64,000 bases of DNA, from the NCBI GenBank assembly GCA_020137815.1, contig CM035351.1:1364001-1428000 (forward strand), written 5' to 3'. The translations under genes and the position numbers were made by a program. The number at the start of each line of letters is the position of its first letter. The first letter of the stretch is position 1. Positions 28,378 through 63,002 of this stretch are shown in pieces. The notes beneath the pieces are model-generated. The model made no database searches and was not told where the DNA came from. It worked only from the letters and a program-made list of their open reading frames with translations. This stretch comes from Hormiphora californensis. Its lineage: Eukaryota > Animalia > Ctenophora.

Positions 28378-31300
28378 ATGCTGTCCTTGCTCGCTCTTCT
28401 TGCTCTCACTGCTTGTGCCACGGGGCAACAACAAGTTCAGGAATTTGGGGATACTATTGATGCATCCTCTGTTCTTGCTGTAAGTTATCTTCCGGTTAAC
28501 AGTTTGAACAGCGCCGCGTTGTACTCTCCCTCGTCCCTGATTGCTTGTTTTTTATCCCATTTCCATGATCATCACTCCTCAAAGCCCACTCCCCTCTGTC
28601 TCCCTCCCCACCCTAACCCGTCCACTCCCCTCTCTCCCCTTCCTACCCCTTCTCCACTCTCCCACCTATAGGTCCAGTCCTAACCCTTCTCCACTCCCCT
28701 CTCTCTCCCCTCCCTAACCCTTCTCCCCACCTATTAGTCCAGTCCTAACCCTTCTCCACTCCCCGCCTATAGGTCCAGTCCTACTCCCCTCTACCTCCCC
28801 TCCCTAACCCTTCTCCACTCCATTCTACCTCGACTCCCTAACCCTTCTCCCCACCTATAGGTCCAGTCCTACTCCCTTCTACCTCCCCTCCCTAACCCTT
28901 CTCCCCACCTTTAGGTCCAATCCTACTCCCCTCTACCTCCCCTCGGCCTCCCTAACCCTTTCCCCCTATCATAGGTCCAGTCCTACTCCGGTGCAGCAGG
29001 TGTGTCACCCCAGATCCGAGAGTTTGAGATCATATCAGGGGGCTCCAGTGGAGATGGTCTCTATCTTCAAGTGGAGATACCTGTGCCACAGCAGAACAAT
29101 ACGTCATCAGAGCACAGCATCTTTGTTATCGACTTTAAACCTTTCTCAGCCACCTCCAATCCCATAGGTATTTTTGGCGGGTTATAGGAATCGTGAATCG
29201 TCCAATCGCGTTACTCAGAATAGGGTACAAACTACACAATCGAGACAAGGTTGTACCTTTCTAGGGTTCACTACAATCTAATATCCCCTCCTAACTAACA
29301 GTTTCCCTCTATATCGATCTCTCCCCTCATGCAGTGAATGATACGATAGATCCCTCTCTGTTGAGTAACTGTTCGAACATCCTGGAACCAGCCCCTCTCT
29401 CAAGCTACTTTCAAACTGAGGCTGACAATGATTCAACCGTCCCTGCTACAACTTCTGTACCCTTCTATGCGGTAAGACAGTCAGTAGTTTCTCGTAGATG
29501 TGATACTGATAATTCATCTTTTAGTGCCTAGCCTGCCCAATGCTGCAACTGTAAGGATATATTTTGTGTCTCTAACACCTAATAATCTTCCCTTTAGGTG
29601 GAGCTAGCAGAAGACAAACAGTCCATCTTGTACACATTCAATGACTCCTACTCCCGGTTCAACTCGTGTGATACTGGGCGGGATGGAGGTATGTGGATCC
29701 CCAGCTCCCAGGGACGGACCACTGAGTATTCCACGGTGTTGGTTGTTAACAATATCTTTGTAAAGGCTGATCAGGGGGAGGGTGGTGATGAGGTTTACAG
29801 TACCGCTTACAGGGCTACTACATTCATACTCACGTGAGTGCTGGGGCACAACAAGTTTCACCCGGTGATTGTGTCAGGCAGGGATGTTATATACCCGGGT
29901 TCTTTTTTGTAAGTTGGTCCCTAAGGCCAGAAAGTTTCTGGACCCTATTTTGACAGTGCGTTCAGATCTCGGCGCTGCCAGACACTTGAGTATTTTGTAT
30001 TTCCATTAACCTGCCCCATAACCTCACACCCCATGATCTCTCCAGGTGGTCTATCAGCCAGTACATCTTTGTGGATGCGGTGGTATCCTCCCAGAAGCGG
30101 GTCTCTGTGGAGCTGGCCTACACCTCCCTCTACCCAGTAATAGAGGGTGACAACAGGGTGACACGAGATATGGTCCTCAATATTGGGTTCAAGACTACCC
30201 TTGAGAAGGCCTTCTCCAACTCTAACATGATGGTACGTATCTGTCCCCTTGGCCACATTGATACCTGAGGAGCGAGAATAGGTTGCAATGGATCCAATCT
30301 GTCCCCGTCCTCAGCGCGGTACCCCTTAACAATAACAAGCTCAGATAGGATGGGCGCCGCTCACTTCGTGTTTTGCTCTCTCTTGTGCGGGTGATCTCTC
30401 CCCCTCTCCCGGCCTTCTCGAATTTCACCACTTAGTCTACCACGGTGAACCAAGTCCAGCTAGCTTCAACTACTACCAGCAATAACAACAAAGGACCAGT
30501 CAACTACAACGCTTACCTACAATCTTCTATCAGATAAGATCGTTCATTCTGTTATTCATTTATTCATTGTATTGTTATGTATGTTTCAGTAATTGTTGTT
30601 GTCAATTTCATAGTTCATAGTTGCCTGTTCACAGTTCTAGGGTGTCTTCTGTCCTGTCAGTTCGGGTATCATTGTTGACCGTGTTTCACGTGCCGGGGTA
30701 GGGGAGTATTTGGCATTAGGTTGTGTCGCCTGTCTCTGTGTTCGTGCTCCCGCACGTATTTTTTTTGGAGTTTTTTTATATAGTTGTTCAGTTCTTGTAT
30801 TTAGGCACTTGGTCCTAGCTGTACTCTTTGGTTCTGCTCCTCTGGCCTCTCCTTAGTCCCTCCCTTTCTTGTTTCCCGTTCCTAGTCAGGTCTGCGTACC
30901 CTCCGGTTGTATTGGGCTAGTGTAGGCTAAGTGTGCCGTGTGGGGTTCCCGCAGTTGTGTTTCCGTGGGGACTGGGGCCTCGTGTGGGCCAGTAGGTTGG
31001 CAGTTAGAGAGGCTTGGCTAAGGGACAGGGGCTGGGCAAGGGGGCTCTTGGTGTGGGGGAGGGGGATCTGGGTTAGTCCCACCTTACTCACTAACACCGA
31101 TCCGAATACGGGTTTCATTCACAGGGCATCTCTCCCGTGCGAGAAAGAGGTAAAGATCTCTCACTCTCCACCTAACCCAAACATGTTGCAGGATCACAAT
31201 ATAGATCTATTGTATTTATCACAATCAACCACCCATTTTCCAGGTGCTTCCTCGTTCCCAATGCTCATCTCCTGTGCAGTTCACGCACAGTGGGCACTAT

Positions 31301-34300
31301 TTCTGTTTCTAGTTGCCTTCTTGGGGCCAGTGGCGACAGCTTCTTCTCCGCTGCCTTTTTTTTTCTCTCGGCTCCCGGAGTTTTCGTCTTGTCTTGGATT
31401 AGATAGGTCTTTTCCAGTTACGGTTCTTCTTCGGATCAGGGGTTCTCTCTCTAGTTGGGACCAGTAGCAGTTTCGTCACTCTGGATCTCGTGGTTGTCTT
31501 CTATTTCATATCTTCTAGTTCGTTGGTCTCCTTCTCTATCGCCGGTCTCTCTCATCTTTATCTCTCCTGCCGATCCCTTTTCATCACCTTTTTCTCCATT
31601 CTCCAAGGGGGTTTTGGATGTCATCCCGTAATTTCTTAATGGAGGTCTTCCTGGAATGTGGAGATAATCATCGCTGTTGGCACTTAACTAATTACTGGAG
31701 GTCTAATTGGGTTCTTCACTCTGGACCCGGCTTCTATTTCGTCACCTTCCTGGAGCGGGGTTCCCTCGTCTGTCTGATGTCTCTCTGTCTCTCTCACTGT
31801 CTGTCTCTCTCATCTCACGCCTATCTCACGATCACAACGGGGGGGGGGGGATATCTGGTGTGTGGGATGGGGTTAATTGGAGTTATTATCTTTCTCGGGT
31901 GGGCCATATTATGGGAGACGATATCCTGTAGAATAGTGGTTGACCATGTATAAGGTCCAAATAAGGCACAGCACTTTTCTGAATCAGCTTTTCAAGACGA
32001 ATCCAACGCAACCGGAATTAGCTTTCTATCTCATCGGGAAGTGCTGGGTCTGGAACCTTCATTTTTAGTCATTTTTCGGTGCGCGGGCCAATCAGAGGCC
32101 TTTATTTTGAAATCCAGGCCTCTGATTGGCTCGCGCACCGAAAAATGAGCAAAAATGAGCAAAAACGAAAATGCCAGACCCAGCACTTCCCGATGAGATA
32201 GAAAGCTAATTCCGGTTGCGTTGGATTCGTCTTGAAAAGCTGATTCAGAAAAGCTCTGTGCCATATTTGGGCGTTATACATGGTCAACCACTACTGTAGA
32301 ATAGTCCATCCATAAAAAGTTATCATACCATGCAATCACCTCATAAGTACATACTTAGTTATCCAGCACGCACCTTCATACATTACATCTGCTTGCTAAC
32401 CAAGTCTTGCCTTCATTGCGTGTAGAGTTGACCAATGATTCCTTCCCTGGCCTCACTAGATCGGTTGGAGAATGGAGGGCTTTGGGGGCTACTTCTGCCT
32501 AATTAGGCTACTCCTTGGGGTTGGGGTGTTCTGTTGGGTTGGGTGGGGGATGGTAAGGTTGTCCGCTGTAGGTCTCCAGTTTTCATTGGTCGGCTCTGTT
32601 AACCCTTCTTCTATTTATCTCTCTCTCTATATCTCTCTCTCTCTCTCTCTCTCTCGCTATCAACAGTACGTAAAGTACGTTTATAGGAGCCAGCTCCCTC
32701 TCTTTCTCTCTCTTTCTCTCTCTCTCTTTCTCTGTGTTTTTTCTTTCCCTATCCCCTGAGCCTAATACCACGATGCATGAACACAAAATACAATCATGAA
32801 CAGCATACGGCGCTCACTCCTTGACACTCATGACCGATAACGAAGCATCACGAACATTGCCCTTGCCCGCTTCATTCCCCAAACTATACACATCTGTGCT
32901 GCAAAGTGCATTAAGGTTGTACCGTCAAACGCTATGCCCACAAGCCTGGTTGATTTTATACTGTAACTGCCTGTAGGGCGGAGCCAGGCCTGGGTTTTGA
33001 CACTCAAAGCGGGTCGGCACCGCCAGACAGGTAATGGCCAGCATGATTAGGCAGAGTACCAGTGATTGGGTACCTAAAGGCAGTATTCCGGCCCTAACTA
33101 CCGGGATCAAACAGGTGGCTGTGAAAATAACATCTGTCAAACCGTGGCACATATGGCCAGGATACATGGTGTGTAACAGGGAGTGACAAATGTTAGCACG
33201 GGGACGATCCAAAAAAAAAGAAAAAAGGATGGGCGCCGCCAGACAAGACGTAGGTATCACGTTATCTTTACCTAAGTCCCCCTCCCAACCACTCATGTAT
33301 TTTATATCAGGGTTCATATCAGGCTCATAACCACGGCATAATTTCTGATCCTCTCATCACTTCAGAAATACGAATCTGACAAGGCCCATCTGTTGCTGGA
33401 TGGTGCCAGTATAGCTGCCGCCTCTACCAACCCCCACCCTCGGTGTGCTGACCAAGGACCCAACGAGGATACCTGCAAGCAAACCTGGGACTTCAACTTG
33501 GTCATACCAGATACATACTTTGGTGGGTAATTTTAATTTTTATGAACAATCACCAATGTTCATAGGGACCAATTAGTTTATCACACAACCCCTACAGGAA
33601 CTAGGGAGCTGTCGGGGTCATTCTTCTACCGGTTAGAGCTGGTTAGGTGTGATGATCTGAATGGGGATCTGAACTTGTGTGCACCTCAGAGCACCGGACT
33701 GGGAGAGGAAATCGTGGCTACTATCACCCTTGATAACATCGTAGAGGTGGGTAGTAGCTGACGATGCTAGGGGGAACTTGGAGTGTTGAAGTTTGAACTC
33801 TAAGTTGGATTTGAGTCACTCATCTCCAAGTTACTCCCCCAGCATTGTCCCAAACACCCAATGTACCTACATGAGTTGGGAAAGATTGGAGAATTTTAGA
33901 CTTTATTTCTCTTTTCTAAAGTTTGATTTCTTGTTCAGGTTAGGAGTGATAAGGAGACAGGTCTACAATTGAAGGTTGTTAGTGTTCGAGATCCCTCTGG
34001 TCAGGCTGACTTCCTCTTTGGGTCTGATTCCCAATCCTCCAGGTTATAAATTGTGCCTTTTATTTTTCCTGTCTGATTCTGAAACACTCGAAAATACACC
34101 CAAATTAGATAAGTACCCGTCAGATATTAGTTCCCCCAGACAGTTCGTTCATGTGTGAATCGACATCCGGGGTTTCACCGTGAATTAGAATATTGTTGAG
34201 CTCCTGAGCTAATCCTGCTCCTTTCTTTCAGGGGTATCTACCATCGAGAAGAAGTGGAGATCTGGCTGGCACCTGCCCGGAACTACCCTCTAATCACCCA

Positions 34301-35387
34301 ATATGGGTTAGAGTTGGTTGCCTTCCTAGTCTGTATTGATAGCAAAGTGCCAGTTGGGGCAAAGAAGGTACGTTACTTTTTGAGTACCCACAGTGTGGGT
34401 CCCACACCCTCTCTCCTCCTCTCCCTAGGGCTCTCCAACACTCCCCTCTCCAACCCTCACACTCTCCCTATAGTCTCCTCTCCCAGCTCCCTCACACTCC
34501 CCCTATAGTCTCCTCTTCCTCACACCTTCCCTATAGTCTCAATTCCACACACTCCCCTCTCTATTCTGATCCCCTAAGGCTATCCCACACTTCCTCTCAT
34601 TCAGGGTTGTCTAGAAGCTGCTCAGGAAGACCGGTATATTGCCCATCTGGCTGACGACCTGGAACTAACTGTCAGTGGCCAGTTCTACAAGGCGTCTGAC
34701 TTCGAGGCTCCAAAACAGCAGCTAACAACCAACGAGTGGTTTTCTAGTAAGCAGCAGTACCAGATTGGGTTTACTAACTTGGCACTTAGTGGACAGACTC
34801 GGGTCTACAAAATTACCATGGTGTTCAAGATCAAATCTCCGGAGAGGTAATTGGGGGTTTAGGGGTTGTTTTTGAGTAGTTTACTATCCGCCATCCGGCA
34901 AGCGTTTAGCTTCTGTCTTTTGTTTACTTGTCCCCAGTCTCAAATGATCTTATATCTCCCCTCCTAACCCCCTGCCCCCTCTGTAGAACTAAACGGTATG
35001 CGATGGTGCACGAGATGGTAAGGAGATCTACCAGTGAGGAGGAGGAGGGACAGAGTGAGGCAGGGGAGGACAATGAGGACGTGTCTGTCAGTGTGAACCT
35101 GGCAATGGGGGGTTGCCCAGGAAACAAGGAATTCGTTGGAGTGGTACGTTTAGCTTTTATAACCAACTAAGTAATTTCATCTCGTAAACCCGGTTTAAAA
35201 CCGACCACAACCTCCACATAGCCAACCATGACCTCATTTTCATTCCCAACATGTTCAAGAAATTTACTAACATCTTGCACGCCAACAGGACGAGCCGTGT
35301 TCTGGAGGACAGAGGAAAAGTCGCTGTAATGTTGTGCTTGTAGCGATTTGTGTTATGATTTTTTCAATTTTTACATGTTTGAAATGA
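28378..35387 (+). CDS. Multi-exon secreted, C-terminally anchored protein of unknown family (weak resemblance to FRAS1/FREM C-terminal or ZP-like ECM modules)
   Basis: Signal peptide MLSLLALLALTACATG; about 12 GT-AG exons; basic RTKR/RR sites near the C-terminus, then a hydrophobic tail VVLVAICVMIFSIFTCLK*. Confidence 0.65.
28600..28990 (+). repeat. Intronic minisatellite built from the 3' splice site plus exon start (about 6 copies)
   Basis: CCTAACCCTTCTCCCCACCTATAG|GTCCAGTCCTA repeated; the last AG (28974) opens the exon VQSYSGAAG. Confidence 0.88.
31934..32293. mobile_element. hAT-type palindromic MITE, 8-bp TSD, intronic
   Basis: CTGTAGAA|TAGTGGTTGACCATGTATAA ... TTATACATGGTCAACCACTA|CTGTAGAA. 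Confidence 0.92.
32971..33030 (-). mobile_element. 60-bp mini element (CTGT...ACAG family), degenerate 8-bp TSD
   Basis: Reverse complement CTGTCTGGCGGTGCCGACCCGCTTTGAG...CCGCCCTACAG aligns by eye with 39999-40056; flanks GTAACTGC / GTAATGGC. Confidence 0.6.
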
Positions 35388-35801
35388 AATTAAGTTGAGA
35401 AAACAAAGTAAAATTGTCTAATTTATTGGTGTTGGGCAAGAAATGTTAACTGGAAATGTACAAAGTTACAATACAAACAATAAAATGGTGCACGGGTATA
35501 ATAGGTAGGGGCTATCTGATATCTGATAACAGGGGGCCATACACTGATAGCACACCAGCTCCGTTACTTCTTCTCTCTCACACACAATATCATAACCCAT
35601 CATAATCGCATCTCTCCCTTCTCACTCATCATTTCGTCTTCTCTTATCTTCTCACTCATAATCTCGTCTTCTCTGGGGGAATTTTAGGCTACCAACACGA
35701 ATTTAATGTCAACACACTACTACTAGGTTTCATACACTTCCTTCATATATACTTCCATCTATAAATAAAACTTCATAATATATTGTCCCTGTTCACATCT
35801 C

Positions 35802-38800
35802 TCAGTCCATGAAGTGTGGGGAACCTAGGACCGATATTCCCACATAGACTCCGCCCTCGTTGTCATGTCTGCTTTTAGTTCTCACCAGTAGACCATGATT
35901 CTCACTCCGCACCACATCACCACCCTCACTGATGTAGGTGGAGTAGAACCCAATCTGAGAAATGGAAGAAGGGAGGGGGTTAGGAACAAATTCATAGCTA
36001 ACGGCCTGTTCACTCTAATAGTTAGTGGAGGTGGTACTACCCAAGATATTCCTGTTTTCTTCTCATATATGTAACTTGTATGAGAAGAAAACATGAAAAT
36101 CAGGGGCAGTACCACCACTGGTAGTACCTGTATGTTCTCCTATTTCTCACCTCGGATACTGATTGAAGGGTGGGGGTAAACTTTCCACCCCTGAAGAATC
36201 TCATTTCTGTGACTGGAGGAGTAATGCGTCTCATCAGGATATACTGCTGTCTGGCGGGGTCCCCTGCTAGCTCCACTAGCCTGTCCCTCATCTCCCCCTC
36301 CCAGAAGTTGTTACCACCTCCCTCTCTCTGGGGCTTCATCACGTACCGCTCCGGGCTGTCTATAGCTACAGGGGAGGGAGAGTTGGTTAGAACAATCATG
36401 AGATCTTGGGTACGTGATCCCTTTCTCTCTCAGCCCCTCTCTGTTAAGAGAGGGGCACCCCGTACCCAACATGAGATCAGAGTAGATCTGGTCAGGTGGT
36501 TGTTATAACAACAGTTCTAAAATCAACAATTTACCTAGTTGAGCGTTTCTGTCCCCTTCCTCGGTAGACTCGAGGGTGAGAGTATCATGAAATAACTCTA
36601 AGACCTCATCAGCCCTATCAGTGTATTTAGACAGGATATCCCTCTTTGCCAGGGACAGTTGAAATAGTTTCATATTCACAATCTGGTGGGGTATAGACGG
36701 GACCTGGAGGGGGAGATGGTTGGTGAGTGGGCCGTGGAGCATAAACGGGACCTGGAGGGGGAGAGGGGGTTGTAAGTGGGGTATAGACGGAACCTGGAGA
36801 GGGAGAGGGGTTGTAAGTGGGGTATAGACGGGACCTGGAGGGGGAGAGGGGTGGTAAGTGGAGTATAGACGGGACCTGGAAAGGGAGAGGGGTTGTAAGT
36901 GGGTAGGAGAGGGGACCTGGAGGGAGAGAGGGGGTTGTAAGTGGGGTATAGACGGGACCTGGAGAGGGAGAGGGTGGTGAGTCGGCCGTGGGGTATAGAT
37001 GGGACCTGGAGGGGGTTTTAAGTGGGGTATAGAGGGGACCTGGAGAGGGAGAGGGGTTGTAAGTGGGGTATAGACGGGACCTGGAGAGGGGTGGTAAGTG
37101 GGGTATAGACGGGACCTGGAGGGAGAGGGGTTGGTGGAAAACTGGCATAGATAGAAAAGTAAACACATATAAGCACACTCCATCATACGGAAACTTTCCC
37201 ATAGTGGTTTTGGGGCAGATTGAAATATATCTGCCATCACCCTCCCCATTTACCTGTGTTAGTACCCACCCTCTTCAAACAAAGAGAAGTACGCCCAATG
37301 AGGCGCCCCGATCTGCCACAGCACTCATTCCCCCAGCCCCCCCCCCCCCAAATATGAATTTTGTACTCACCGGTATAGCTCGAGACAGCTCAATTTTCCG
37401 TCTCATCTCCCAAGATCCCTCTAGAAACTGGTCAGGATCGTAGAGACTCCTCAGATAGAACACCGACACCTCCTGTCCAGACACCCTGCACCTCCCATCA
37501 CCACCCACAGTGAGGTGTTTCGTCAGCTCGGCAACCTCGTACCGGACCATTCTTACACCTCTATCATTCACACTGTTTATTAAGTGCTGTGGAGAGAGAA
37601 GGGGGTGGTTGTGAATGGTGTTGAGGAATGGGGTTCAATAGTTGAACACTTCAACTTGAGAGAAGGGCAGGCCAACTTGAAACTAATTCAAAAATATCCG
37701 ATTACCTGTTGATCAAAGTAGTTAAAGTCAAGTGTGTTGCCTACACAGGCCAGCACTATATCCTGGCCCTCGAGGGAGTTCCTGGCAAGGTAGAGGTTGT
37801 GGGCAGTCACCAGTGCATCAGCGAAACCTAGAGAGATGGTATGGTACATCACATGGGGTCAAGTTAATCGACCTTCACTTGAGCTAAATCACAATAACGA
37901 AGTGGTAGCAAGGTCCTAGACATGTTCAGTACCTGCTACCGTGGAGTCAACTGGTCGAGTAGGGTTGTGGGCCCGTCCATGCATCCGATTAACCCCATCC
38001 GCTAAAGACCCCATACTGGCAGCTGCGAGATTGAACTCAACCTAGGGATATCATGTGGTTTAGTCTGGTAGAGATAGTAGGGACGATAGTGTCAGGTTCA
38101 GAGATCTAGGAAAAAGTGGTTTCCATGGAAAGGGGTGTTTGAGGCGAGTATACGGGTACACTTAGTTTTCGCTTGAAGGGCGCTGGCAAGCGTCAGGGAC
38201 GTGGTTTGTGTAAGGGTGGGAACCACGTGGGATTATCAAGATAAGCTAAGAGGTCTTGTTTAGTCCGCTATACAATGATATGATCCATCAAGATATATCA
38301 CATACCAATTTGAACTGTCCATGTCTGAAGGCATTCTCCCCCGTTGGATCGTCTGTATGAAACATGAAGTCATGTCTGTTTAGCATTAGACTCGGTTTAG
38401 ACAGGTGTTCAGGGGTCATCTCCCGGTAAATATCGAGGTGACCTGAAAGCAGGTCAATAATTTTTGGGAGAGAGAGAAATGTTATTTCCAGGCTAGAAAT
38501 AAACTACCAGGCCAATACTCCACTACACACATATCACACTCAGTCTGTATTAGTTTGACTCGCTCAGACATGTGGATGAGTAGCTGCACTAGTTCAGGTG
38601 TTTACATTTTCATTGTACTTACATCTAACAAAATCATCGTGAGATGCTATGTCACTGAGTGAGTCGATGATAAACTGTTCATCTCGGGATGCCAGATCCA
38701 GGATACGGTTTAGTTCTGGTTGGAGGTTCCGGGCAGCAGTATAAGCTGTACTGCAGATCCGGGTCGAGGAACATGCTACGGTGATGGGGACAACACTATC

Positions 38801-38986
38801 GCCCTGTGTGGGACATGTGTGAGGAAGGGGAACATGGTAAAAACCTAGATAAACATCTTAGTGAGCGAGGGGAATTTAACACAATCTTTCCCTGACAGTT
38901 AAAAACCAACTTACGTTTTCCAAAAGGAAAGCAAGGCCACGTGATAAGAGTTCTGCTTTCAGTGCCTTTTCCTCATAACTCCCCAT
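35802..38986 (-). CDS. GSS: Glutathione synthetase (eukaryotic type), multi-exon
   Basis: LNRHDFM, VEFNLAAASMGSL, VFYLRSLYDPDQF, YVMKPQREGGGNNFW, YILMRRI, VSE/IG, LLVRTK...EGGV. Confidence 0.93.
36685..37135 (-). repeat. Intronic minisatellite (~40 bp, about 11 copies) built from the 3' splice site plus exon start
   Basis: Minus strand ...CCCCTCTCCCTCTCCAG|GTCCCGTCTATACCCCAC repeated; the last CAG (36706-36704) opens the exon VPSIPHQIVNMK. Confidence 0.9.
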
Positions 38987-39591
38987 CACACCCACACCAC
39001 ACTGCTATAATAGCACACCTATAACACAACGTGAAGAGAGCAGGGGTCAGTATAAGACGTGGGAAATAATATATCAAGTCTCAGAAAAATGGTATTTATA
39101 CGATTTTGATAATGTGGAATATGTGCAAGGCAGTTTACATCATCAATGATTCAATAATAGTATTAAATTCAGTAGCACATAGAATTCCAAATTGAATTTC
39201 AACAAATTATGGCCCTTGGCCTTCTCAGTTGCAGGAAATTCCTGAGGAATTAGGTAATTCCCCCAGAATAATCCAGCTCACCAGGTCGACATCTTCAGAC
39301 AAAAGACATGATAAACAGACAAAGACGCTAAATTATCCCAATCAAAAGAAGAACTGGCACAATGAACTACCTGACACATGCCACTCTAGATCATTGTCCA
39401 GTAACTTATTTCCATGGTTTTGCATCTCTACTTCATCTCTACTTGCCATACAGTGAATCCCTCTACATATCCCTGGACCTCTAAACATACTAACCCGTGC
39501 CTCCCAAAACAAAAGAGATAAATGTCAACACTACAGTCGCTGGTACTACTAATGGTCGCCTGTATTATAGTGGGTGGAGCAACCTTGAGCT

Positions 39592-39868: not shown

Positions 39869-39998
39869 CTTGAGCTGCTATAGCTGTGCCGAATTTGTAC
39901 AAACTGAAGGACAGCTTGGAGTCTACAGTGACAACAGGTATTATAGGGTATTAGGGCGTCGTGTGGCTAGTGTTATAGCCTATATTGACAGTACTGAA

Positions 39999-42079: not shown

Positions 42080-42081
<2 letters not shown>

Positions 42082-42135
<54 letters not shown>
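42082..42135. repeat. (GA)n microsatellite
   Basis: Direct reading. Confidence 0.95.
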
Positions 42136-51333: not shown

Positions 51334-51853
51334 TCATTCTGAACCAAACCAAGCCCTCCACTTGACAACATAGTAAATCAAGAGAAAACATCCAAACCCG
51401 AACACGACCAGATACAACGTGAATCGTTTGTTGCTCTTTGCAGCCATTATCTGAAGTCTCTTCATCGTGTTGCCCAGGAGTCCCTCCCCAAAATCAAACT
51501 CATTATCCATTCCATTGAGATACTTGTTCTGTTCTCCAACCTCGGTCCCTGGGGAGAGGGGGGGGGGGAGTTTTAGAACGAGAGATTAAGAAATGTTGAA
51601 AAATGTGTGCAAACTGAACAGTGGTGTTCTGATTTTGTGATGTGTATAAAAAGATTACGCCGAAACAAGTATAAATGCAGGAACATGCAGCATAGCTTGA
51701 AAACATCAAACAAGTCGACCAACCTATGTCAATAGTAAGGGATTTGAGGGCGGCTACTTTTCCCTGAAGTGATGAGATAAGCTGGTCGTTCTCCCTCTCA
51801 ATAATCTCACTGTTCTTGATATCATTCATGCTGCCGACTGGGGTGCGGCGCAT
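51334..51853 (-). CDS. BET1: BET1 Qc-SNARE; exons 51853-51724 and 51548-51334
   Basis: ERENDQLISSLQGKVAALKSLTIDIGTEVGEQNKYLNGMDNEFD...LLGNTMKRL plus a C-terminal TM segment. Confidence 0.92.
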
Positions 51854-52091
51854 GGTAATGGCGCTACAATGAGAGGGGGAGAGGGGTTAGAGAGAAGGGG
51901 ATAGAAGGTTAGGGAGGTACAATATGGGGGAGAGTTTAGTCAGAGAGAGGGAGGGGGACATGCACAGAGAAAGGTTTAACTACAAAACTGGAAAACTTGA
52001 TGGAAAGGAATGTTGATGAAAAACAGTAAAACATATAAAATAAAATACATCTTAAAATGAGACCAACCAAGACAGTGTCCGTTTACTCGCT

Positions 52092-53305
52092 TCACTGCAC
52101 AACCCCATCCCGCTCCATATCCAGTACCTGTCCATCACTGTAACCCAGCTCTCCCCAACACCTCCCGGGTATGCTGCCCTAACTCCGGTGGAGCCCTGTA
52201 CCCGGCAGGGTCCTCTCCCTGCCACCTGACCGGGTGTGCTACCATCCTCACTCCCTCCCTCATCCACCACCATCCCCTCAGAACCGGGCCCCTCAAATGC
52301 CTCCTTTACTGAGTTAACCGGGGAGATAGAGAAGGAGTAACCCTCAGATAACTTCACCCAGTATTCCGTCCCTTCCTCTTCAAACCTCTCACTGAGATGT
52401 CCAATAAGGGCGGCCCTGTTCTCCACCCGCAGCTCATTAGTACTAAACATGGGGTTGCTAGCCAGCCAGGGCCACCCCACCGCCTCACTCAACTCCCAGA
52501 ACTGCTGATCGTTGTTAGCTGCCACCACTATAAACCCATCAGATGTAGTGAACCCCTGGTAGGGTACAATACTGGGGTGAGAGGAGCCCCGGGGCTTGCC
52601 CACAACCCCCGAGTTGAGGTAGTTACTGGCAATGTTCACAAGACACCCTAATTGGACACGGTACATACTGATATCAAGGAATGTCCCATGTCCTCCGTTC
52701 CGCTCCCTATCGAACAGTGCCGCTGAAACAGAGCTGAGTAGATAGAGACCAGCACAGATATCAGTAATGGCTACACCAACTTTAACAGGTTGGCCCCCCT
52801 CAGGCCCTGTTATACCCATTAGCCCTCCCTCCGCTGCTATTGTCAAATCATAAGCACTCTTGTCCGGCCCGGTCTGGCCATAACCCGATAGTGAGGCGTA
52901 GATGAGACCGGGGTTGATCTCCTTCAAAGAGGGGTAGTCCAGTTTGTGTTTTATCAGGGTACCAGGTCTGCCGTTTTCAACAAAAACATCACTCATTTCA
53001 GCCAGTCTGGTGACAACCTCCCTCCCCCTCGGCGTGGTATAGTTCACTGCGATACTACGCTTATTACGGTTACACGAAGCGAAGTAGTTGCTCAGGCTCG
53101 GGGTAATGAAGGGAGGGCCCCAGGTTCTGGTATCGTCCCCAACACCTAACCGCTCAACTTTAATCACATCAGCCCCAAGGTCAGCCAGGTTTTGGGTGGC
53201 GAAAGGGGCAGCTAAAATACGGGACATATCAACCACTTTCACCCCTGATAGAGGTCCCGAAGAGGAGTTGGTAGAGAGGCAGCGGGCAAGTATGGCATTT
53301 CTCAT
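52092..53305 (-). CDS. SUGCT: Family III (CaiB/BaiF) CoA-transferase, succinyl-CoA:glutarate CoA-transferase-like, with mitochondrial presequence; two frameshifts near the 3' end
   Basis: GPLSGVKVVDMSRILAAPFATQNLADLGADVIKVE, GDDTRTWGPP, NRNKRS, SGYGQTGP; shifted frames give RAPPELGQHTREVL and ELGYSDGQV...GVVQ*. Confidence 0.88.
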
Positions 53306-53365
53306 ACTACGAAAATATATCAGTCAATTTTGTGCAAAATAAATATTAAATAACAAAGCAAAAGT

Positions 53366-54202
53366 TTATCGAGTGGTAGAAGATCTTGAGGTAGACGCCA
53401 CAGCTGCCCCACTAGGCCTCGAACTAGACGCTACAGCTGCCGCACTAGTTCTCGAACTAGACGCCACAGCTGCCCCACTGGGCCTCGACCTAGACGCTAC
53501 AGCTGCCCCACTAGTTCTCGAACTAGACGCCACAGCTGCCTCACTAGTTCTCGAACTAGACGCCACAGCTGTCCCACTAGGCCTTGAACTAGACGCTACA
53601 GCTGCCCCACTAGTTCTCGAACTAGACGCTACAGCTGCCCCACTAGTTCTCGAACTAGATGCTACAGCTGCCCCACTAGGCCTTGAACTAGACGCTGCTG
53701 CGGCTGCATTTGATCTTGAAGCACTAGATGGCCGGACACCAGCCGCTGCCGAACTGCCTGTTCCTCCTGCAGCAGCTTGTTTGGCGGCATGTTCCGCCAG
53801 GATTCTCTCCCTCTCTTCCCTCTTTTTACCCAGATACCGGGGCTCCCTTCTCTCTTGTTTCTTAGGGAGAATGTATGTCTTCAGCTGGTCTGCTATAGCC
53901 TTCTGCATGTTGATCTCGTCAGGTATGTGAACAAATCTAATCTGTTTCCCGTGAATGTGCATCGTCTCAAATTTCTGTTCCGGTTTGTACGGGATCTTAT
54001 AGGTGACCCATTTCATGTTAATGTTCATGGCCCCATCCACATGAGTCACTTCCCCCGTGATCTCTATCTCATTCCGCAGCTCTACAGTAGTTCTCATACC
54101 CTCCAGCTCCTTCAGCAAGCAGCATAGTGTACTGGAGAAGTTGGCACGCTCCCAGCCGGTTAAATTCTTGGAAAATATTTGATCTGCTTTCTTCCTAGAC
54201 AT
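53366..54202 (-). CDS. LSM10: U7 snRNP-specific Sm-like protein LSm10 with a long Ser/Ala/Arg repeat tail
   Basis: ER...TLCCLLKELEGMRTTVELRNE...GEVTHVDGAMNINM...IHGKQIRFVHIPDEIN...IADQL matches the LSm10-type Sm1/Sm2 fold. Confidence 0.85.
   Translation of the reverse strand: MSRKKADQIFSKNLTGWERANFSSTLCCLLKELEGMRTTVELRNEIEITGEVTHVDGAMNINMKWVTYKIPYKPEQKFETMHIHGKQIRFVHIPDEINMQKAIADQLKTYILPKKQERREPRYLGKKREERERILAEHAAKQAAAGGTGSSAAAGVRPSSASRSNAAAAASSSRPSGAAVASSSRTSGAAVASSSRTSGAAVASSSRPSGTAVASSSRTSEAAVASSSRTSGAAVASRSRPSGAAVASSSRTSAAAVASSSRPSGAAVASTSRSSTTR
53385..53697 (-). repeat. Coding minisatellite, 33-bp unit x9 (ASSSR[T/P]SGAAV)
   Basis: Direct reading of the ORF and DNA. Confidence 0.95.
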
Positions 54203-54399
54203 GGTTCAATGGCTCATTATATCCTGCAAGGGAGATACTTGATTAGTTGGGGGGGGGGGGGAGTGAGACCTGGGTTTTGGTGAAGCAGGGAAGGAAGAAA
54301 ACACATATTGATCGGTAAAAGAGTAATAAATTAGATTGAAAACTGTCAAATAACAGGCCACTGAGTAAAAAATGTGCTACCCTAAAAAATAACGTCTCC

Positions 54400-56751
54400 T
54401 CATTTCCGTTTGCCACCCGGCTTGCCACCTTTCTTAAAACCTCCTCCGCCACCGCCACTCTTTCCTTTAAAACCTCCACCACCACCACCGCTTTTTCCTT
54501 TGAAACCTCCACCACCACCGCTTTTTCCTTTGAAACCTCCTCCACCACCGCCACTCTTCCCTTTGAAACCTCCACCGCTCTTTCCTTTAAATCCTCCTGG
54601 CTTGTGCTGGGCTCGGTTCTTTGCCTTCACCTTCCTATCCTTGATGATGGTGTCCACGCTCTTTAGCTCGCTCTTCCCTCCCGTTTCCTTGGTGTAGTGC
54701 CAGCCTCTCCTCCTACCCTGGGGTCCCCTGCCTCCTCCACCCTCCTCCTTCTCCCCCGTGGACAGAGCAGTCTTCTTGGCCTTCGTCACCCATTCCTTGT
54801 ACCTTCCACTCTTATAACTCGCTTTCACCTTACTTCCATCTTCTGCCCTCACCGTCTTCTCATTTCCATCCTTATCCATCCGAACAAACCTCTTCTTTTT
54901 CTGGTCCCACTGCTGCTTTGCCTTCTGTTTCTTGATCATATCAATATCATCACCAGCCAAATCAAATGTTGCATCCTTCACATCCCGCTCAAATCCTAGA
55001 CTCAGTGCCCTGTCCTCTGCATCCTGATTCCCGGGTCGGGTGTACGGGATGTAACCATCGTCCTTTGTTGGTGCTGGTTTCTCCACCTCTACAAATACTG
55101 AACCCATCTCTCCCTCGGTCGCTTTGTCTGCATCTGAAACTGCCGGGAGAGACAGTTTTGGGACTTTAGCTGCTGATTTGAACTTCTCGTGGATCTCTCG
55201 TTTGCGTTTCATGATCCCTTGACATTCATTCTTGTCTGTTTTGCTGATCTCAAAGATGGTAGTCCTACCCCTGTAAGTTCTCAACTGAGCTAGAACGGAA
55301 TCCCTCTCAACAAGGGAGGCGTCTGATGGAAATTTAGGGTGTGATGCGAGAACTGGTACCTCTTTGGCACGTACCACGGACTCCGTCGCTGGGTGACCAC
55401 GAGATCGAATGTAATGTTTGTGGCCATTTCGGTAGGTTTTCTGGGTGGAATCAAGGACACAGTTGATCCTGTGGAGAGAGTTAATTCTCTCGTTCTGAGT
55501 GTCAATATGGTACTGAGGCAGCACACCAAGACAGTCCTGATCTGATGTACTGACCTCTGACCCTGCTGTAGTGAAAGTAACATTGCGACCCAGATACAGA
55601 TACAAATCGAACAGGAAGGGAAGTTCATCTCCCCCAACAAGAGAATAGGCAGTACCAGTTTTACCCGCACGTGCAACTCGACCCACCCTGTGGACGTACA
55701 GTTTGGCAGTTTGTGGAAAGTTGAAGTTGATGACATTGTCCAACAAAGGCACATCAATACCACGGGCAGCAATATCCGTGACAAGTAGCACATTAACTTT
55801 CTTGTGATAAAACTTAGCGGCTGCGATTTTCCGTGCTGTTTGATCCAAGGAGCTGTAGATTGAAGCACACGGAAGGCTAATACTGGAAAACAGCTCTGCT
55901 GCATACTCAACATGATGCTTTGTGGGAAAGAAGATGACTGTTTGCTCTGTTGAAGTGATAATGGTATGCTCCATTAGATGTAACAACACTGCCCATTTGT
56001 TTTCCTCGTTTACACGCAGGTGAACTGTTTTCAATCCATCACTCAGCTTGCTGTCAGTATCTAGCCGAACCAATACTGGCTCTTTGAGACCAGCCCGGGC
56101 AAACTCGACCACTGAACGCGGAAGAGTGGCACTAAACAAAGTTGTTTGTCGTTCCTTAGGTAACCGGCCGCAAATCTCCCCGAGCTGATCTGCGAATCCC
56201 ATTTCAAACAACCTATCAGCTTCGTCGCAGATGAGCATTTCCACAGCTGGTAGTTTGAGATTCATCTCATGAATCAAGTGGACAAGTCGACCTGGTGTGG
56301 CTATCACAATATCCGGATTATCATGAAGAGATTGAAACTGCTCACTCATGCTGTCACCACCAAGAATCAGTGTAATCCGTAGGTTCCTCCCCCGGGAGAA
56401 ATCTTTGGCAAACTTCATTGTCTGAATGGCAAGTTCCCTCGTAGGTGATAAAATAAGACATCTGATTCCAACAACAACACTGTGTTCTTTCATTAACTCA
56501 ATGGCAGGGAGAAGAAAAGCAGCAGTTTTTCCTGATCCCGTTCGGGCCATAGCAACCACATCTCGCTTATCAAGCAGTAGAGGTATTGTTTTTCGTTGAA
56601 TAGGTGTTGGAATTTTGTACCCTTTTTTGACTGCCGCTTTTACTGTCTTCGATGAAAGACCGAGGGAATAAAACCCGCCACTCTTGGATTTCTTGTTTTG
56701 CTCCTGGACGAGTTTCTGGGTCTCATCTTCGCTCCCTGACTCGTCAGACAT
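54400..56751 (-). CDS. DDX54: DEAD-box RNA helicase DDX54/Dbp10, intronless
   Basis: KKSKSGGF, PTPIQRKTIP, MARTGSGKT, DEAD, SAT, HRVGRVARAG, and DBP10CT-like WDQKKKRFV...KASYKSGRYKEW. Confidence 0.96.
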   Translation of the reverse strand: MSDESGSEDETQKLVQEQNKKSKSGGFYSLGLSSKTVKAAVKKGYKIPTPIQRKTIPLLLDKRDVVAMARTGSGKTAAFLLPAIELMKEHSVVVGIRCLILSPTRELAIQTMKFAKDFSRGRNLRITLILGGDSMSEQFQSLHDNPDIVIATPGRLVHLIHEMNLKLPAVEMLICDEADRLFEMGFADQLGEICGRLPKERQTTLFSATLPRSVVEFARAGLKEPVLVRLDTDSKLSDGLKTVHLRVNEENKWAVLLHLMEHTIITSTEQTVIFFPTKHHVEYAAELFSSISLPCASIYSSLDQTARKIAAAKFYHKKVNVLLVTDIAARGIDVPLLDNVINFNFPQTAKLYVHRVGRVARAGKTGTAYSLVGGDELPFLFDLYLYLGRNVTFTTAGSEVSTSDQDCLGVLPQYHIDTQNERINSLHRINCVLDSTQKTYRNGHKHYIRSRGHPATESVVRAKEVPVLASHPKFPSDASLVERDSVLAQLRTYRGRTTIFEISKTDKNECQGIMKRKREIHEKFKSAAKVPKLSLPAVSDADKATEGEMGSVFVEVEKPAPTKDDGYIPYTRPGNQDAEDRALSLGFERDVKDATFDLAGDDIDMIKKQKAKQQWDQKKKRFVRMDKDGNEKTVRAEDGSKVKASYKSGRYKEWVTKAKKTALSTGEKEEGGGGRGPQGRRRGWHYTKETGGKSELKSVDTIIKDRKVKAKNRAQHKPGGFKGKSGGGFKGKSGGGGGGFKGKSGGGGGFKGKSGGGGGGFKGKSGGGGGGFKKGGKPGGKRK

Positions 56752-57348
56752 TTCTGCGACTAAAAAGGGTGTAGTGGTGTTAGTTATATTCGAAATAATG
56801 GTTTCGTGACACTTAACAAGGCAAAACAGCCTGACAGTCGAGCAGAAAGATGCCAGAAAGCGAAAAAAAAATTGAGTGTAAAAAAATTTTGAAATTAAAT
56901 TTTAAAATTTTGAGTTTCATATCAATAGCACGCCGCGCGGCAGCGGTATCGCGGAATTTGTTCGCGCGTTCCATTAATTTTAAGATTCGCAAATACAAAT
57001 GTCAAAAAGCAAACTCTTAACTTCACATTTGGATTTTGATTTCAGTTTTTGTTTTTTTAAGTCAAAAAGCGCTTCACCTTCACGAGTGACGAGTGGAGTG
57101 AGGCCAGCCTGTAGCAACAAAATCAAAAACTGAGTCTTGTTATTTGTCACTTCTCCCAGAGTCCAGACAACTGTTTTACCATTTGCGATTTACCTAAAGT
57201 TTGACTGAAAACTGTTTCCTGTACTGCAGTTTTCATCAGACAGATAATTACTCATTTACTTAACAACTTGTCCAACTTAACTGTAATCAATTAAAACGTA
57301 ACTTTTTTTAAAGAAGGGAAGTTTTTGTTGCCAGAAAAGGACAAAGAT
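56752..57348. promoter_or_regulatory. Probable bidirectional promoter region between DDX54 and DNAH2
   Basis: Head-to-head starts 597 bp apart; CpG-rich patch ~56930-56970; RFX-like half site GTAGCAAC at ~57111. Confidence 0.55.
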
Positions 57349-60300
57349 ATGGCTTCGGGAGGCGCTCCTGCGTCTACTGAAGATGCACCGTATCTGGCAC
57401 CGGTACGTAGATGGTAAAACAAGTGGTTTTTATGAGTTTGTAAACTATGAGCATTAATTATAACGTCTTTTCTTCTCAGGAGGAGATCCTTAAGCCGCGG
57501 GTCTGCTTATCAGGATTGACCGCCGATATGTGGCAAGAAAGCCACTACAGTGCCATTTACCGATTCTTTTGCGACGAAAACTGTCGAGTTCTCATTGCCT
57601 ACATTGATAAGAACATGGGTCTGGTCGTTGACAACGTCGTCCCTAGCACACAGGTAGAGTATGGTGTCTTACATACTTTGTTAAAGTTTGTGTTTTCAGA
57701 CATATTTCTAACATTCCTTGTTCTACAGCCGAGTCAAGTGTCATACTTCATCAAGTTAGAGCCAGCGAAGTTATCCAAAACGAACTTCAACAAGTCCGTG
57801 ACTTATGGCTCCTGTAACGCTGATTATATGCACAACTTGCTGGGCTCCATGCACTCCATCTTTGCCCCAGTATTCTTCAAGAATACCACCTGGCCAGAGA
57901 GTAAGTTTATCTGCAAATTATATTTTAGTCATTTGAGCTACCTGATATCTATGACGCTGGATTATGACCCTTCTCTTGCTCCACAGGTGTGCGGAACGAC
58001 TTTGCAGGACAGCTCCACAAGTTCATGGCGTGTCTAACGGACACCGCCCATAAGATCGAGGGAAAGACTGTTCTGTACATTCCAGAGGAAGATGTCAGTA
58101 CCTCCCTGGAGACGTGTGCCAGGAACAAGGATCTTGTAGCACGACTTGAAAGTACGTTCACAGAAAATGAAAAACTTACTTTGATATTGTTGGGTTTTAC
58201 TGGAGGACTATAACAACAACATTTCAGCATCTGTTATTCACTGGACGAGGCAAATCAAGGAAGTCCTCAGTGCTCAGGATGCGCTAGAGATGAGTGAGAG
58301 CAGTGGTCCTCTAGAGGAGATAGCGTTTTGGAAGAGTCGCTGTACTGATCTCTCTGGAATATCGAAGCAGCTAGACCAGGATGGAGTACAGTCAATCAAG
58401 GAGATTCTACGTCTGTCAAAGTAATTTCAACCCACATTACATCTGATTATCTACTGATATTATGATATAATGATTTTCTGACACCAGATCTAGATCTGTT
58501 CTTAATTGAATATTAGTACTGCAAAATCGTTGATTCTCTTTAATTACCAGATGTTTCTCCCCTAACATTTAACACTCTTATTTCAGGTCCTCATATCTAG
58601 CTCCATTTGCTAAGCTCGCTAAGCAGATCCAGGAGAATACCGTCCAGGCTCAATCCAACCTCAAATTCCTCTCAACTCTTAAAGAGCCCTGTGAGGATCT
58701 GGCCAAGTCTGAACCTGCCAGTATCCCTCCAATGCTGTCCAAGATTCTCAATGTGATCCGGGTGATCTGGACCAACTCTGAGCATTATCGGAGTAGGGAG
58801 CGGCTCACTGCACTTCTCAGGAAATTCTCTAACGAGATTATCCAGAGGTGCTGCACCAAGATCTCCCTAGAGGACATCTTTACTGGCCAGGTTGAGAGGA
58901 GTCTGGAGGGACTGGACCAGAGTATAGAGTGCTGTGAGGCCTGGAAGGATGCTTACAATCACGCTGCAGCTACCCACAACCGCTTTAGCGAGGTCAAGTG
59001 GCTGCTTGATAGGAATAGCATCTTTGCCCAGATCGATGCCTTTGTACAGAGGTGTCGGGATCTGAAGGAGGTGTGCGAGGGACAGAGTCAGTTTGGACGG
59101 TACTCCAACGGACAAAAGAGGCCCCTGCCTATCTTCGCGGGTCTAAAGGGTCCCGAGATTGCCAGAAGTTTGAAGGATATCGAGGATGCCTTCGAGAAGA
59201 ATCTGAACATTCTGAGGAAGGTGAAGGCTACAATTCTGGATGTCAAGTCTACTGCCTGGCATGACGCTTACAACAAGTACGTAGTGTTGGCTTCTAAAAC
59301 AGTAGATTCATCATCTAGGACTTGAAGCTACTTGCCTTTTCGTTTTGTAATTCGTCGGTCAAATCATTATGTTTCCCAGGTTCCGTATGGGAGTCAAGGA
59401 TTTGGAGGTGATGATGCAGAATGTTATTTCTTCTGCATTTGAAACAGTCACCACTGTGGAACTAGGTGTTCAAGTCTTGGATGTCTTCCAGCATCTATCT
59501 TCCAGAGAAGTACGGGTCTTTAGATTTTCGGAATCAGCTCTTACTCACTCGATTTCTCCTTTAGATAATAATTAAGTTTTTGTCAATATTCTAACATTCT
59601 TGATATCTCAGGCAATCCGTCGTACCATTGACAAGAAGACTGTGGATGTGTACCAGAGGTTTAACGAGGAGCTGAACTTTGTCAAGAAAGAGTTCAACAC
59701 GAAGACCCCCAACCTGACTCCCACCCAGCCCAAGTTTGCCGGCGCTGCTGCCTGGGCCAGGGCACTCAAGAGACGTATCGACAGGCCAATGGATGTGATC
59801 AACAAGGCGTACTACCTACCCCGTATTGGTGCTGGTGAGGAGATCAGGAACCAGTATACTCAGCTTAGTCAGGCGCTGGAAGAATTTGTCGGGAAGACCT
59901 TCCAGGAATGGGCACTGTCAATAGACAAGGTATAAAATACACCCAAAATACACTGCACTTACAAAGAGGTTGAATCGTATTTATAAAACAACACTATTTC
60001 CAAAAACCATCCCATTCCCTTATTCGACTAACGCTGAACTCCAAGTTTTACGCTCAGGATCTATGTCATCTCCTGGATGCCCCTTTGATGACACGATGTG
60101 CAGACAAGACATCCATGCTCGACGTCAACTTCGATAAGTAAGTAGTACCTTCTGATTGGCTCCACCATTGTTACATGTCAAGTTCCGACCTAGAAGTCAG
60201 ATCATGAGTTTACCACTTCTAACCTATCCCCCCCCCCCAATCTAGGACGCTACTGAAGCTGTTCCGTGAGATCTACTACTGGGAGCGGCTCAAGTTTGAG

Positions 60301-63002
60301 ATCCCTCACTACGCTGCAGAGGTGTACGCTAAGGAGGAGGAGCTAAGATCCCTCAGAGAGAATGTTCTGCTTGTGGTTCGGGACTACAACAGGATCATAT
60401 CGGCTCTCAATACTGAGGAAAGGGGCCTCTTCAAGGTTTGTTGTAGTGCTACTTCAACTATCATTTCTTGTTTTTTGTAATACTCAGTGTCATGATACAA
60501 TCCAGGTAGTTTCTAACACCCTGCCCCTACTCCAGGTAGTTTCTAACACCCTGCCCCTACTCCAGGTAGTTTCTAACACCCTGCCCCTACTCCAGCTGGA
60601 TTCAGGTAGTTTCTAACACCCTGCCCCTACTCCAGGTAGTTTCTAACACCTGCCCCTAATCCAGCTGGATCCAGGTAGTTTCTAACACCCTGCCCCTACC
60701 CCAGGTAGTTTCTAACACCCTGCCCCTACTCCAGGTAGTTTCTAACACCTGCCCCTACCCCAGGTAGTTTCTAACACCCTGCCCCTACCCCAGCTTGATC
60801 CAGGTAGTTTCTAACACCCTGCCCCTATCCCAGCTGGATCCAGGTAGTTTCTAACACCCTGCCCCTACCCCAGGAGCGTATCAAGTTCCTTGACAAGAAG
60901 GTCCATGCCGGCCTCACCAAGTTGAGTTGGGCCACTAAGGGACCCACTACTGAATACTTCATGAACGAGTGTAGGAACCACGCCAGCAAGGTCCAGTCCA
61001 TCGTGGACAGCTATAAACATGCCAACAGATCCATCCAGGGCCTGTGTAAGAGGATCAGTGAGTCTCTCCTAGTACACATTGATAGCAAGAGGATCTACGA
61101 AAATAATGAGGTGAGAACAGGAACACTAACCATAATTCTATGGTTTACAGCTACTAATACACAGCTACTAGACTAAAACTTGTTCAACTATTATAACCTC
61201 CCATTCCCCTTTCGAGATGTATTCTCTCTGACCCCTCTACTCCCAACAGTTCGAAACAGAGCAACAGAAGCACAGGAGTGTCCAACAGACCAAGTTAGTC
61301 CATCTTCACGAGGAGATAATCAGTATTATGAAGACCACATACGAGACTTTCAAGAACGATGGGGCAGATGTTCAGATGCACTGGCACCGGTACACAGAGA
61401 AAACAGACCGGATGGTGGAGGAGGCGTTCCGATTGAACATCAAGAGGTCCCTACAGGAGTTGTCCAGAGCTATCCATGGTGATGGCAAGACGGCTCCTAA
61501 CCCACTCTTCAAGGTCAAGGTTGTCCTTCACGAGGGAGATAAGGTACGTTGTGGAAAGTGCTGGGGGAGATAAGGTAGTTCTTGTTGGGGTGGTAGATTT
61601 GGTGATTACTGACCTCGATATATATCGTAGTTATAACTAACAAGGATCTAGATTTTCACCAGCTTTGAAACATCTAACATCCACGTTTACAAACTAACAT
61701 CTCTCCAGCCTAACTAACATGTAACATTTCTCCAGCCCAACTAACATGCTAACATTTCTCCAGCCCAACTAACATGCTAACATTTCTCCAGCCCAACTAA
61801 CATGTAACATCTCTCCAGCCTAACTAACATGTAACATCTCTCCAGCCCAACTAACATGTAACATCTCTCCAGCCCAACTAACATGTAACATCTCCCCAGC
61901 CCAACTAACATGTAACATCTCCCCAGCCCAACTAACATGCTAACATCTCTCCAGCCCAACTAACATGCTAACATCTCTCCAGCCCAACTAACATGTAACA
62001 TCTCTCCAGCTCAACTAACATGTAACATTTCTCCAGGTTGATTTCTCGCCTACTACCAAGAAACTGGCTGATATTGTGAACATGTGTGCTAAGGATCTAA
62101 CCACCTGTATTTCTATTGTACCCCGTCTACCTGAGGTGCTATCTAAGAGGAAGGGAAACAGAGAGACCCTGGTAAGTAGTGGATGGTTTATACTCATATT
62201 TTTGAACTAATTGTGCAAAAATTAAACTTGAAGCCCATCAAGTTCGTAGTTAGAACTAAACACTGAGGGGCATTAAAGAGAAATGTGTCAACATTGCAAT
62301 ACCTGACTAACCCCTCTCTCAGCGAACTTTTAACCTACTAAGCAAGCAGGAGGTAAGCGTAATAACAGTGCAGCAAAAGTGATTCAAATTTACATCATGA
62401 ACGCTCTAGAACTGATTTAACCAAATTAATTCCTGCCTTTAAAACGCACACAAATCCCATTTCTTTCTCCTTGGACCATTCAAATGCTATCCTGAATATA
62501 TCCCGGGGCTTTTGATCAGCATGCCTGTGATGTGAAACATCATACACTTGACACACTTTTAACACATTTCTGTTAACATTACCTAACATTGTGCTATTAC
62601 TTCTCAGCCCATCTACGCTGTGATCTCAAACGATGAGGAAACGAAGAAGTTGAAGACACAGATCAACGCGTGCATGGCAACTAACGCAGGTGGGTGCAGA
62701 ATATCACCACCACCTTCCATTTTCCACCTTTACCAAGGTTTGCCTCAAACTAACTATCTTCTCCTTATTCAGGTCACCTGGTTAGCTATCTACACACCTG
62801 GGACAACTGTAGGGAGCTATGGGACATCAATAAGGATGCCTTCATTCGCAGATACCAGAAACTCAAACCTCTAATGAGCAAGTTTGATGCTGATATTAGC
62901 CGATACTCCGAGGTGGCGAACAATATCCAGAAAGAGGAAACTGTACAGACGATCCAGTTTGTACTGCTCGATTGTCAGCCCCTCAAGTTTGCTCTTCTCC
63001 AG
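57349..63002 (+). CDS. DNAH2: Axonemal inner-arm dynein heavy chain (I1-beta/DNAH2), N-terminal tail exons; continues beyond window
   Basis: WPESVRNDFAGQLHKFMACLTDT...TVLYIP, IHWTRQIKEVLSAQ...GPLEEIAFW, IRVIWTNSEHY, IFAQIDAFVQRCRDL, AIHGDGKTAPNPLFKV. Confidence 0.93.
60502..60873 (+). repeat. Intronic minisatellite: 11 copies of a ~30-nt GT...CTAAC...CAG unit ending at the real acceptor
   Basis: (CCAG)GTAGTTTCTAACACCCTGCCCCTACTCCAG; the exon ERIKFLDKK starts at 60874. Confidence 0.93.
61690..62036 (+). repeat. Intronic minisatellite: 13 copies of a 27-28-nt branch point/acceptor unit ending at the real acceptor
   Basis: CCCAACTAACATG(C)TAACATYTCTCCAG; the exon VDFSPT starts at 62037. Confidence 0.93.

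Follow-up and report, generated by a model that had tools for sequence, protein, structure and literature searches.

Tandem copies of 3′ splice sites in a 64-kb window of the ctenophore Hormiphora californensis

We analyzed a 64,000-nt stretch of the Hormiphora californensis genome (positions 1,364,001 to 1,428,000 of contig CM035351.1, assembly GCA_020137815.1; hereafter the window), in which five tandem arrays and two doublets repeat the 3′ splice sites, or acceptors, of their host genes (Table 1). These arrays are probably young, neutral minisatellites of the type termed mirages in amphioxus, which would have formed when C-rich intron ends were duplicated in tandem at the DNA level, then been amplified, and been tolerated through use of the last acceptor copy. 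All counts refer to this single window, which was picked for its arrays, and P-values for the bias are post hoc.

Tandem copies of acceptors in the window

Introns were annotated by hand from the window sequence, with GT..AG ends and frame continuity as criteria. The 61 introns obtained had a median length of 139 nt; 48 of them were 250 nt or shorter, and the smallest measured 43 and 48 nt. Tandem Repeats Finder (TRF) recovered all five arrays and both doublets that a previous, sequence-only reading had listed, each arranged head-to-tail with a period of 27-69 nt and 2-29 copies. The 3′ end of 6 of the 61 introns (approximately one in ten) consisted of a tandem array of the intron's own acceptor. 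Beyond the first list, smaller duplications at intron 3′ ends were found in an uncharacterised signal-peptide gene (gene X), at a BET1-like gene, and in an RGS gene (Table 1).

The repeats were biased toward acceptors. Among 18 non-microsatellite intronic clusters, the end of eight lay no more than 20 nt from an acceptor, whereas no cluster started that close to a donor. This bears out, for the window, the earlier statement that no comparable arrays sit at 5′ splice sites, and is the outcome of the acceptor-versus-donor enrichment check proposed with it, here run with TRF inside the window. Random placement of the collapsed units gave an expectation of 3.0 clusters near acceptors compared with the 8 seen (P = 0.003); six of the eight touched or passed the acceptor, and 13 of the 18 clusters were acceptor-proximal (P = 0.05). 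A stricter, ungapped 20-mer test gave 5 acceptors versus 0 donors of 61 at a threshold of 15/20 (P = 0.057), where only 0.15 chance copies were expected, 6 versus 3 at 14/20 (P = 0.49), and 6 versus 0 at 16/20 with two probes pooled (P = 0.027). The ungapped test was weaker than the cluster test for acceptor bias. The whole window held 43 tandem repeat clusters, 25 of them outside introns, and is thus rich in tandem duplications apart from those at acceptors.

In the sense orientation of the host gene, the units of all seven arrays carry a branch-like motif, a pyrimidine tract, and YAG. The common architecture described earlier was thus recovered, except that AG is lost in 10 of the 29 units of the array at 46221. 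An all-against-all comparison of nine arrays found as common sequence a single C-rich match of 15 nt, in agreement with the claim that the arrays are unrelated, and a search of the window for a dispersed mobile element (Introner or miniature inverted-repeat transposable element [MITE]) found no related copies between loci. Two types of unit were distinguished. Junction units, which span the exon-intron boundary, occur in 2 of the 7 arrays: in gene X, the acceptor has five TAG copies upstream of it, in units carrying up to 15 nt of exon 2 (AG/GT), and in the gene for glutathione synthetase (GSS), ten upstream copies of 34-48 nt are each led by up to 18 nt of exon (AG/GT). Intron-end units, with 0-2 exon bases, form the two DNAH2 arrays and those of TRAPPC11, PP2C, and PNP. 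The DNAH2 array at 61694 has 12 upstream copies with no exon bases (AG/CC) and an in-frame stop in the unit, and the TRAPPC11 array extends over ~2 kb. The units of the DNAH2 array at 60500 are bounded by a 5-nt direct repeat, CCAGG, which takes in the AG plus the first base of the exon; 10-nt inverted inserts are interspersed among these units, with a 12-nt palindrome at 60659. Most arrays end at the acceptor, as had been described, but those of gene X and GSS run 15-18 nt into the exon, and which acceptor is functional was judged from frames and homologues. The acceptors of the seven array introns were richer in C (0.36-0.61) than those of the other 54 introns (mean 0.34; P = 0.01), and three arrays contain 3-10 G-quadruplex (G4) motifs each on the template strand.

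Choice among acceptor copies

Use of the first copy would cause a frameshift or add a stop codon in all five coding arrays; in gene X, the TAG at the putative working acceptor also forms a stop codon in frame. On the DNAH2 chain 8j07_k9 (PDB), the exons on either side of the 60500 array are contiguous at residues 698/699. P0122 runs uninterrupted over the 61694 junction, and P0126 and P0127 over the GSS junction. Because the first copy would shift the frame or add a stop in every coding array and homologues are collinear across these three junctions only with the last AG, we infer that the last copy must dominate. The putative working AG of gene X lies at 28973-28974, and that of GSS is predicted to end at 36704. 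We also scored the copies with a weight matrix built from 55 other introns. The last copy was not the top scorer: an upstream YAG scored as high in 8 of 11 cases in GSS and in 5 of 22 in the 60500 array. The rule that the last acceptor is the strongest was accordingly rejected for these two arrays, and because the matrix does not rank the last copy first, context must decide the choice of acceptor.

Of 18 sequencing runs listed, five were compared with parts of the window. RNA contigs, all of low depth, were taken from runs X7 and X8 over 48300-63200 and from runs X7, X8, and X15 over 28300-38950. Their joints fell at ordinary introns only (59276-59380, 59929-60046, 60137-60246, and 35954-36151), and contig pieces flanked 59510-59611. 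The spliceosome usually takes the first AG after the branch point. In the joint from 59929 to 60046, the acceptor is an AAG and holds the first AG to follow the branch motif; a CAG in frame lies 12 nt further on (60030-60057). Since this joint takes the first AG, ordinary second-step scanning operates.

Origin and turnover of the arrays

The arrays could in principle be assembly stutter or collapsed haplotypes. A 1001-nt sequence is present at 100% identity on either side of an N gap, the TRAPPC11 frame breaks near 45255, and the ~2-kb TRAPPC11 array is known from the assembly only. However, TRF matches between units were 68-95%, with differences consisting of both substitutions and indels. 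DNA reads of the same species (run X2), probably from another individual since they differ from the window elsewhere, gave a contig identical over 61981-63116 that reaches two units into the 61694 array, and a second contig that enters this array from the left, up to 61724. In a sister species (organism B, run X11; ~5-9% diverged in the aligned pieces), a unit-to-unit joint was found at the gene X array, from 28868 back to 28647. Because units differ, X2 contigs enter the 61694 array, and X11 holds a unit-to-unit joint, we take the arrays to be real and consider an artefact highly improbable.

Comparison with the sister species pointed to rapid change. In run X11, position 61700 is connected to 62035 by nine intervening letters, which looks like a single acceptor; only 20 letters make up the short side of this joint. 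Run X11 also showed a shorter intron at 34468-34601 in gene X, and two joints in the GSS array intron that drop 237 and 517 nt, with much shorter 5′ parts. The inserted letters of one GSS joint resemble the start of the exon, a possible seed for an array. The sister species thus seems to lack the 61694 array and to possess that of gene X, a pattern that fits fast neutral turnover on the scale of sister species.

From these features, we propose that the arrays arose and persisted in four steps. Where a C-rich intron end carries short direct repeats, slippage, microhomology-mediated repair, or template switching between them would produce the first duplication. The units would then be amplified and turned over by unequal exchange or by more slippage. 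The copy beside the full exon would be the one used, as the acceptor would be committed along with exon enhancers and the downstream donor, whereas upstream copies have at most 18 nt of exon behind them; after commitment, the first-AG rule would apply. With correct mRNA still made, the arrays would persist. A trans-splicing lineage must presumably recognise acceptors without an upstream donor, and this may favour exon-side definition. The marks resembling DNA repair in the 60500 array (its 5-nt direct repeat and 12-nt palindrome) suggest a DNA-level origin.

Several observations weigh against this proposal. The array introns were uncrossed by RNA contigs in all five run-by-region comparisons. 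The previously proposed rule of distal acceptor choice is consequently required by frames and homologues in the window but was not seen in the low-depth RNA contigs, which contain no array introns. Minor use of upstream copies may be tolerable, as 5 of the 10 upstream GSS copies keep the frame and contain no stop, and in the 60500 array a CAG in frame lies 30 nt upstream. Human data indicate that short introns favour the upstream acceptor (PMC9225289), the reverse of what the proposal requires, and the introns here are short. G4 motifs are missing from four of the seven named arrays. Exact direct-repeat seeds were not richer at acceptors than at donors (ratio 1.1-1.4, n = 39, P > 0.2); an excess of microhomology at acceptors was thus rejected as the cause of the bias. 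Because of this, plain microhomology does not explain why acceptors are preferred over donors, and the bias is left without an explanation by microhomology density. Finally, run X11 holds high-depth contigs resembling the 61694 unit (61815-61842), and its summed depth stays near 45 over the GSS array, so that arrays may well be present in the sister species.

A different origin would link the first duplication to events of transcription or splicing that take place at the acceptor (polymerase pausing, R-loops, or RNA-templated repair), which would make acceptors a mutational hot spot specific to that process; the arrays would be neutral afterwards. The 8 versus 0 bias without a microhomology explanation and the existence of arrays without G4 motifs are in its favor, as is the PP2C intron, in which the 12 nt preceding the final G of the exon (1997-2008) recur at the start of the doublet (2232-2243), 92 nt before the acceptor, where no such match was expected. 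This repeat looks like an old direct repeat marking the origin of the intron. However, it is a single case: in a cross-intron null test, a 12-nt match was found in 1 of the 61 introns, indicating that copying of exon tails into introns is not systematic. Furthermore, the units are collinear with genomic DNA, a spliced junction was found in none of them, and the inverted inserts and palindrome of the 60500 array suggest template switching at the DNA level. C-rich nascent RNA is also a poor former of R-loops. We therefore regard a splicing-coupled origin as unlikely. Earlier, a mutational process targeting 3′ sites, combined with distal acceptor choice, had been put forward; the bias and the need for the last copy hold in the window and make this general reading the best one, but none of the tests run singled out R-loops or reverse transcription as the cause.

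A functional role, with the arrays serving as loading platforms for U2AF and U2, as decoys, or in recursive steps, had also been suggested; the decoys could serve regulated nonsense-mediated decay, and recursive splicing could remove ladders of AG/GT sites. AG/GT is present in three of the five large arrays, the GSS units match the smallest introns of the window in length, and CCAG/GT is kept in 10 of 10 GSS units while 22 of 41 columns vary, a figure biased by the cutting of the units at that very motif. However, three in five is unremarkable compared with 16 of the 61 acceptors overall, and units at 61694, 46221, 2222, and 50359 have no GT after the AG, so that AG/GT, which a recursive ladder would need at each step, is present in 3 of the 7 named arrays only. 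In the largest array, AG is retained in just 19 of the 29 units as assembled. The units are unrelated between genes, the host genes show no evident common regulation, and the 61694 array is apparently absent in the sister species. These results lend no support to the suggested functions, which we consider improbable.

The duplication model has precedents. Amphioxus mirages (Adh3, BflGb6, BflGb9, troponin C, and PGBD5) are tandem copies of exon-intron boundaries that leave splicing undisturbed, occur at both 5′ and 3′ boundaries, carry cryptic splice signals, are unstable in length, and have an origin stated as unclear (PMC3087553, PMC3902484). The arrays described here are similarly minisatellite-like boundary copies with cryptic splice signals at several loci of one genome; upstream copies scored near or above the working site in the weight matrix, and the periods fall within the 10-160 nt of the head-to-tail units of mirages. 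The gene X and GSS arrays resemble BflGb6, where the intron 3′ end and exon start are copied. In contrast to the amphioxus cases, only acceptors are affected in this window, and in five of the seven arrays the units include no more than 0-2 bases of exon. Amphioxus mirages were shown to be spliced normally and to be polymorphic in copy number, whereas in this ctenophore host with short introns normal splicing is predicted and the length differences seen are those from the sister species. By the boundary-spanning definition, two of the arrays are, on their sequence, mirages, and the other five are acceptor-only relatives.

Human CBS c.844_845ins68 duplicates 52 nt from the end of an intron together with the 16 nt of exon that follow; splicing uses the downstream acceptor and removes the upstream copy (PMC7490669). 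This duplication is likewise one of intron end and exon start; it is one extra copy at one locus in a polymorphic allele rather than an array or a genome trait. In a potato RdRp case, such a duplication, involving the intron 3′ side and exon 5′ side (or an AGGT segment) and supplying splice sites, can create an intron (PMC4974935); no new intron was shown here, and the deduced mRNA is unchanged. Under the proximity rule, the upstream 3′ site is less strongly preferred where exon definition operates, which is the direction needed here, but short introns there prefer the upstream site and the arrays here start from short introns (PMC9225289). The claim that such arrays had not been described as a system fails in view of the amphioxus and CBS cases. 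Our survey of the open-access literature, supplements aside, found no ctenophore report and no report of a genome-wide acceptor bias. Individual cases are known and harmless; the density and one-sidedness of the arrays are what may be of consequence.

A broader reading, which we advance as doubtful, is that 3′ splice sites are a process-specific hot spot of duplication throughout this ctenophore genome, affecting about one in ten introns, with exon-side definition even in short introns of this trans-splicing lineage and the last of many equal acceptors picked. If about one in ten introns had ladders of equal acceptors, existing RNA-seq would directly test the choice between identical 3′ sites when introns are short, a setting for which the human data point to the first site. 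The whole genome would in that case offer a natural experiment on acceptor choice, with the arrays as a lasting supply of new introns, and a genome-wide acceptor bias would constrain the origin of mirages and bear on intron gain by duplication. Such arrays can also mislead gene prediction and read alignment.

Host genes and neighbouring features

Host genes were named by Pfam (PP2C, RGS, Foie-gras_1/TRAPPC11, CoA_transf_3, LSM, and DHC_N1), and DNAH2 by PDB sequences; the names DDX54, BET1-like, and GALNT are tentative. The gene we take to be GSS was recognised from its sequence, with P0126 and P0127 as homologues. A full scan with one of its exons gave 8 matches, of which these two were used; P0125, a bacterial repeat protein, was dropped as a chance match, and a word-index search with the neighbouring exon found none among 34 candidates. 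The sister species lacks ~180 nt at 38065-38248 in a GSS intron, and intron length thus shifts fast even without arrays. Gene X extends over 28380-35330. Two of its exons had no match in a Pfam search, and parts of it may resemble the C-terminal region of FRAS1/FREM. RNA contigs at 31101-31491 lie inside its 3.1-kb intron, perhaps within a nested gene.

Table 1. Tandem repeats at 3′ splice sites and related features of the window
Feature	Position	Strand	Remarks
PP2C 49-nt acceptor doublet	2222-2338	+	intron 2009-2337
RGS gene, small duplications of branch-point region	9788-9827, 9499-9529, 8166-8236	-	16-46 nt before acceptors
Intron	10966-10860	-	hand annotation
Gene X acceptor-junction array	28621-28989	+	intron 1, 28480-28974; TRF
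Gene X degenerate acceptor-like repeats (..CCCTATAG)	34431-34557	+	intron 34368-34604; stop 47 nt before working acceptor
GSS (glutathione synthetase) acceptor-junction array	36686-37133	-	intron 37370-36704
TRAPPC11 69-nt acceptor array	46221-48187	-	upstream of start codon; Foie-gras_1 Pfam match
PNP (purine nucleoside phosphorylase) 42-nt acceptor doublet	50359-50448	-	just before start codon; donor not assigned
BET1-like, upstream 21-nt doublet of branch-point region	51871-51916	-	ends 7 nt before acceptor
DNAH2 30-nt acceptor array	60500-60874	+	intron 60436-60873; units GTAG..CTAAC..CCAG
DNAH2 27-nt acceptor array	61694-62036	+	intron 61544-62036

The array acceptors of both TRAPPC11 (46221) and PNP (50359) precede start codons, and would serve either in the 5′ untranslated region or in trans-splicing. 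The TRAPPC11 array intron is predicted to span 48371-46223 in the 5′ untranslated region. The TRAPPC11 frame is split into two open reading frames near 45250-45260 on the minus strand, probably by an assembly indel. PNP was 72% identical to its Mnemiopsis leidyi counterpart; with P0037 (EP00116_Pleurobrachia_bachei), identity was 100% across 53% of the query, a match that points to P. bachei or a very close relative. PNP belongs to a tight run of five same-strand genes at 49488-56760 on the minus strand (DDX54-like, LSM, CoA-transferase III, BET1-like, and PNP), in which each ATG follows a branch motif and an acceptor; in the first four, ~60-190 nt separate the stop codon from the next acceptor. 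A poly(A) end lies at 49258. The run looks like a trans-spliced operon. Since spliced leaders were found on at least 56% of Hormiphora Iso-Seq reads (PMC8527503), some of the acceptors before ATG codons in this run may be trans-splice sites. The tail of the LSM protein (53385-53696, minus strand) is encoded by a 33-nt repeat, in which run X2 shows several differences, one of them a gap of 6 nt.

Other repeats were also observed. The identical 1001-nt sequences lie at 10548-11548 and 12909-13909, flank a gap of 100 N, and are likely a scaffolding artefact. A 36-nt repeat of 10.6 copies at 11549-11908 contains a minus-strand, Ser/Thr-rich open frame and may be coding. Long palindromic, MITE-like elements were noted by eye at 5940-7280, 25090-25730, and 31930-32300, the last of which draws very high depth in run X11.

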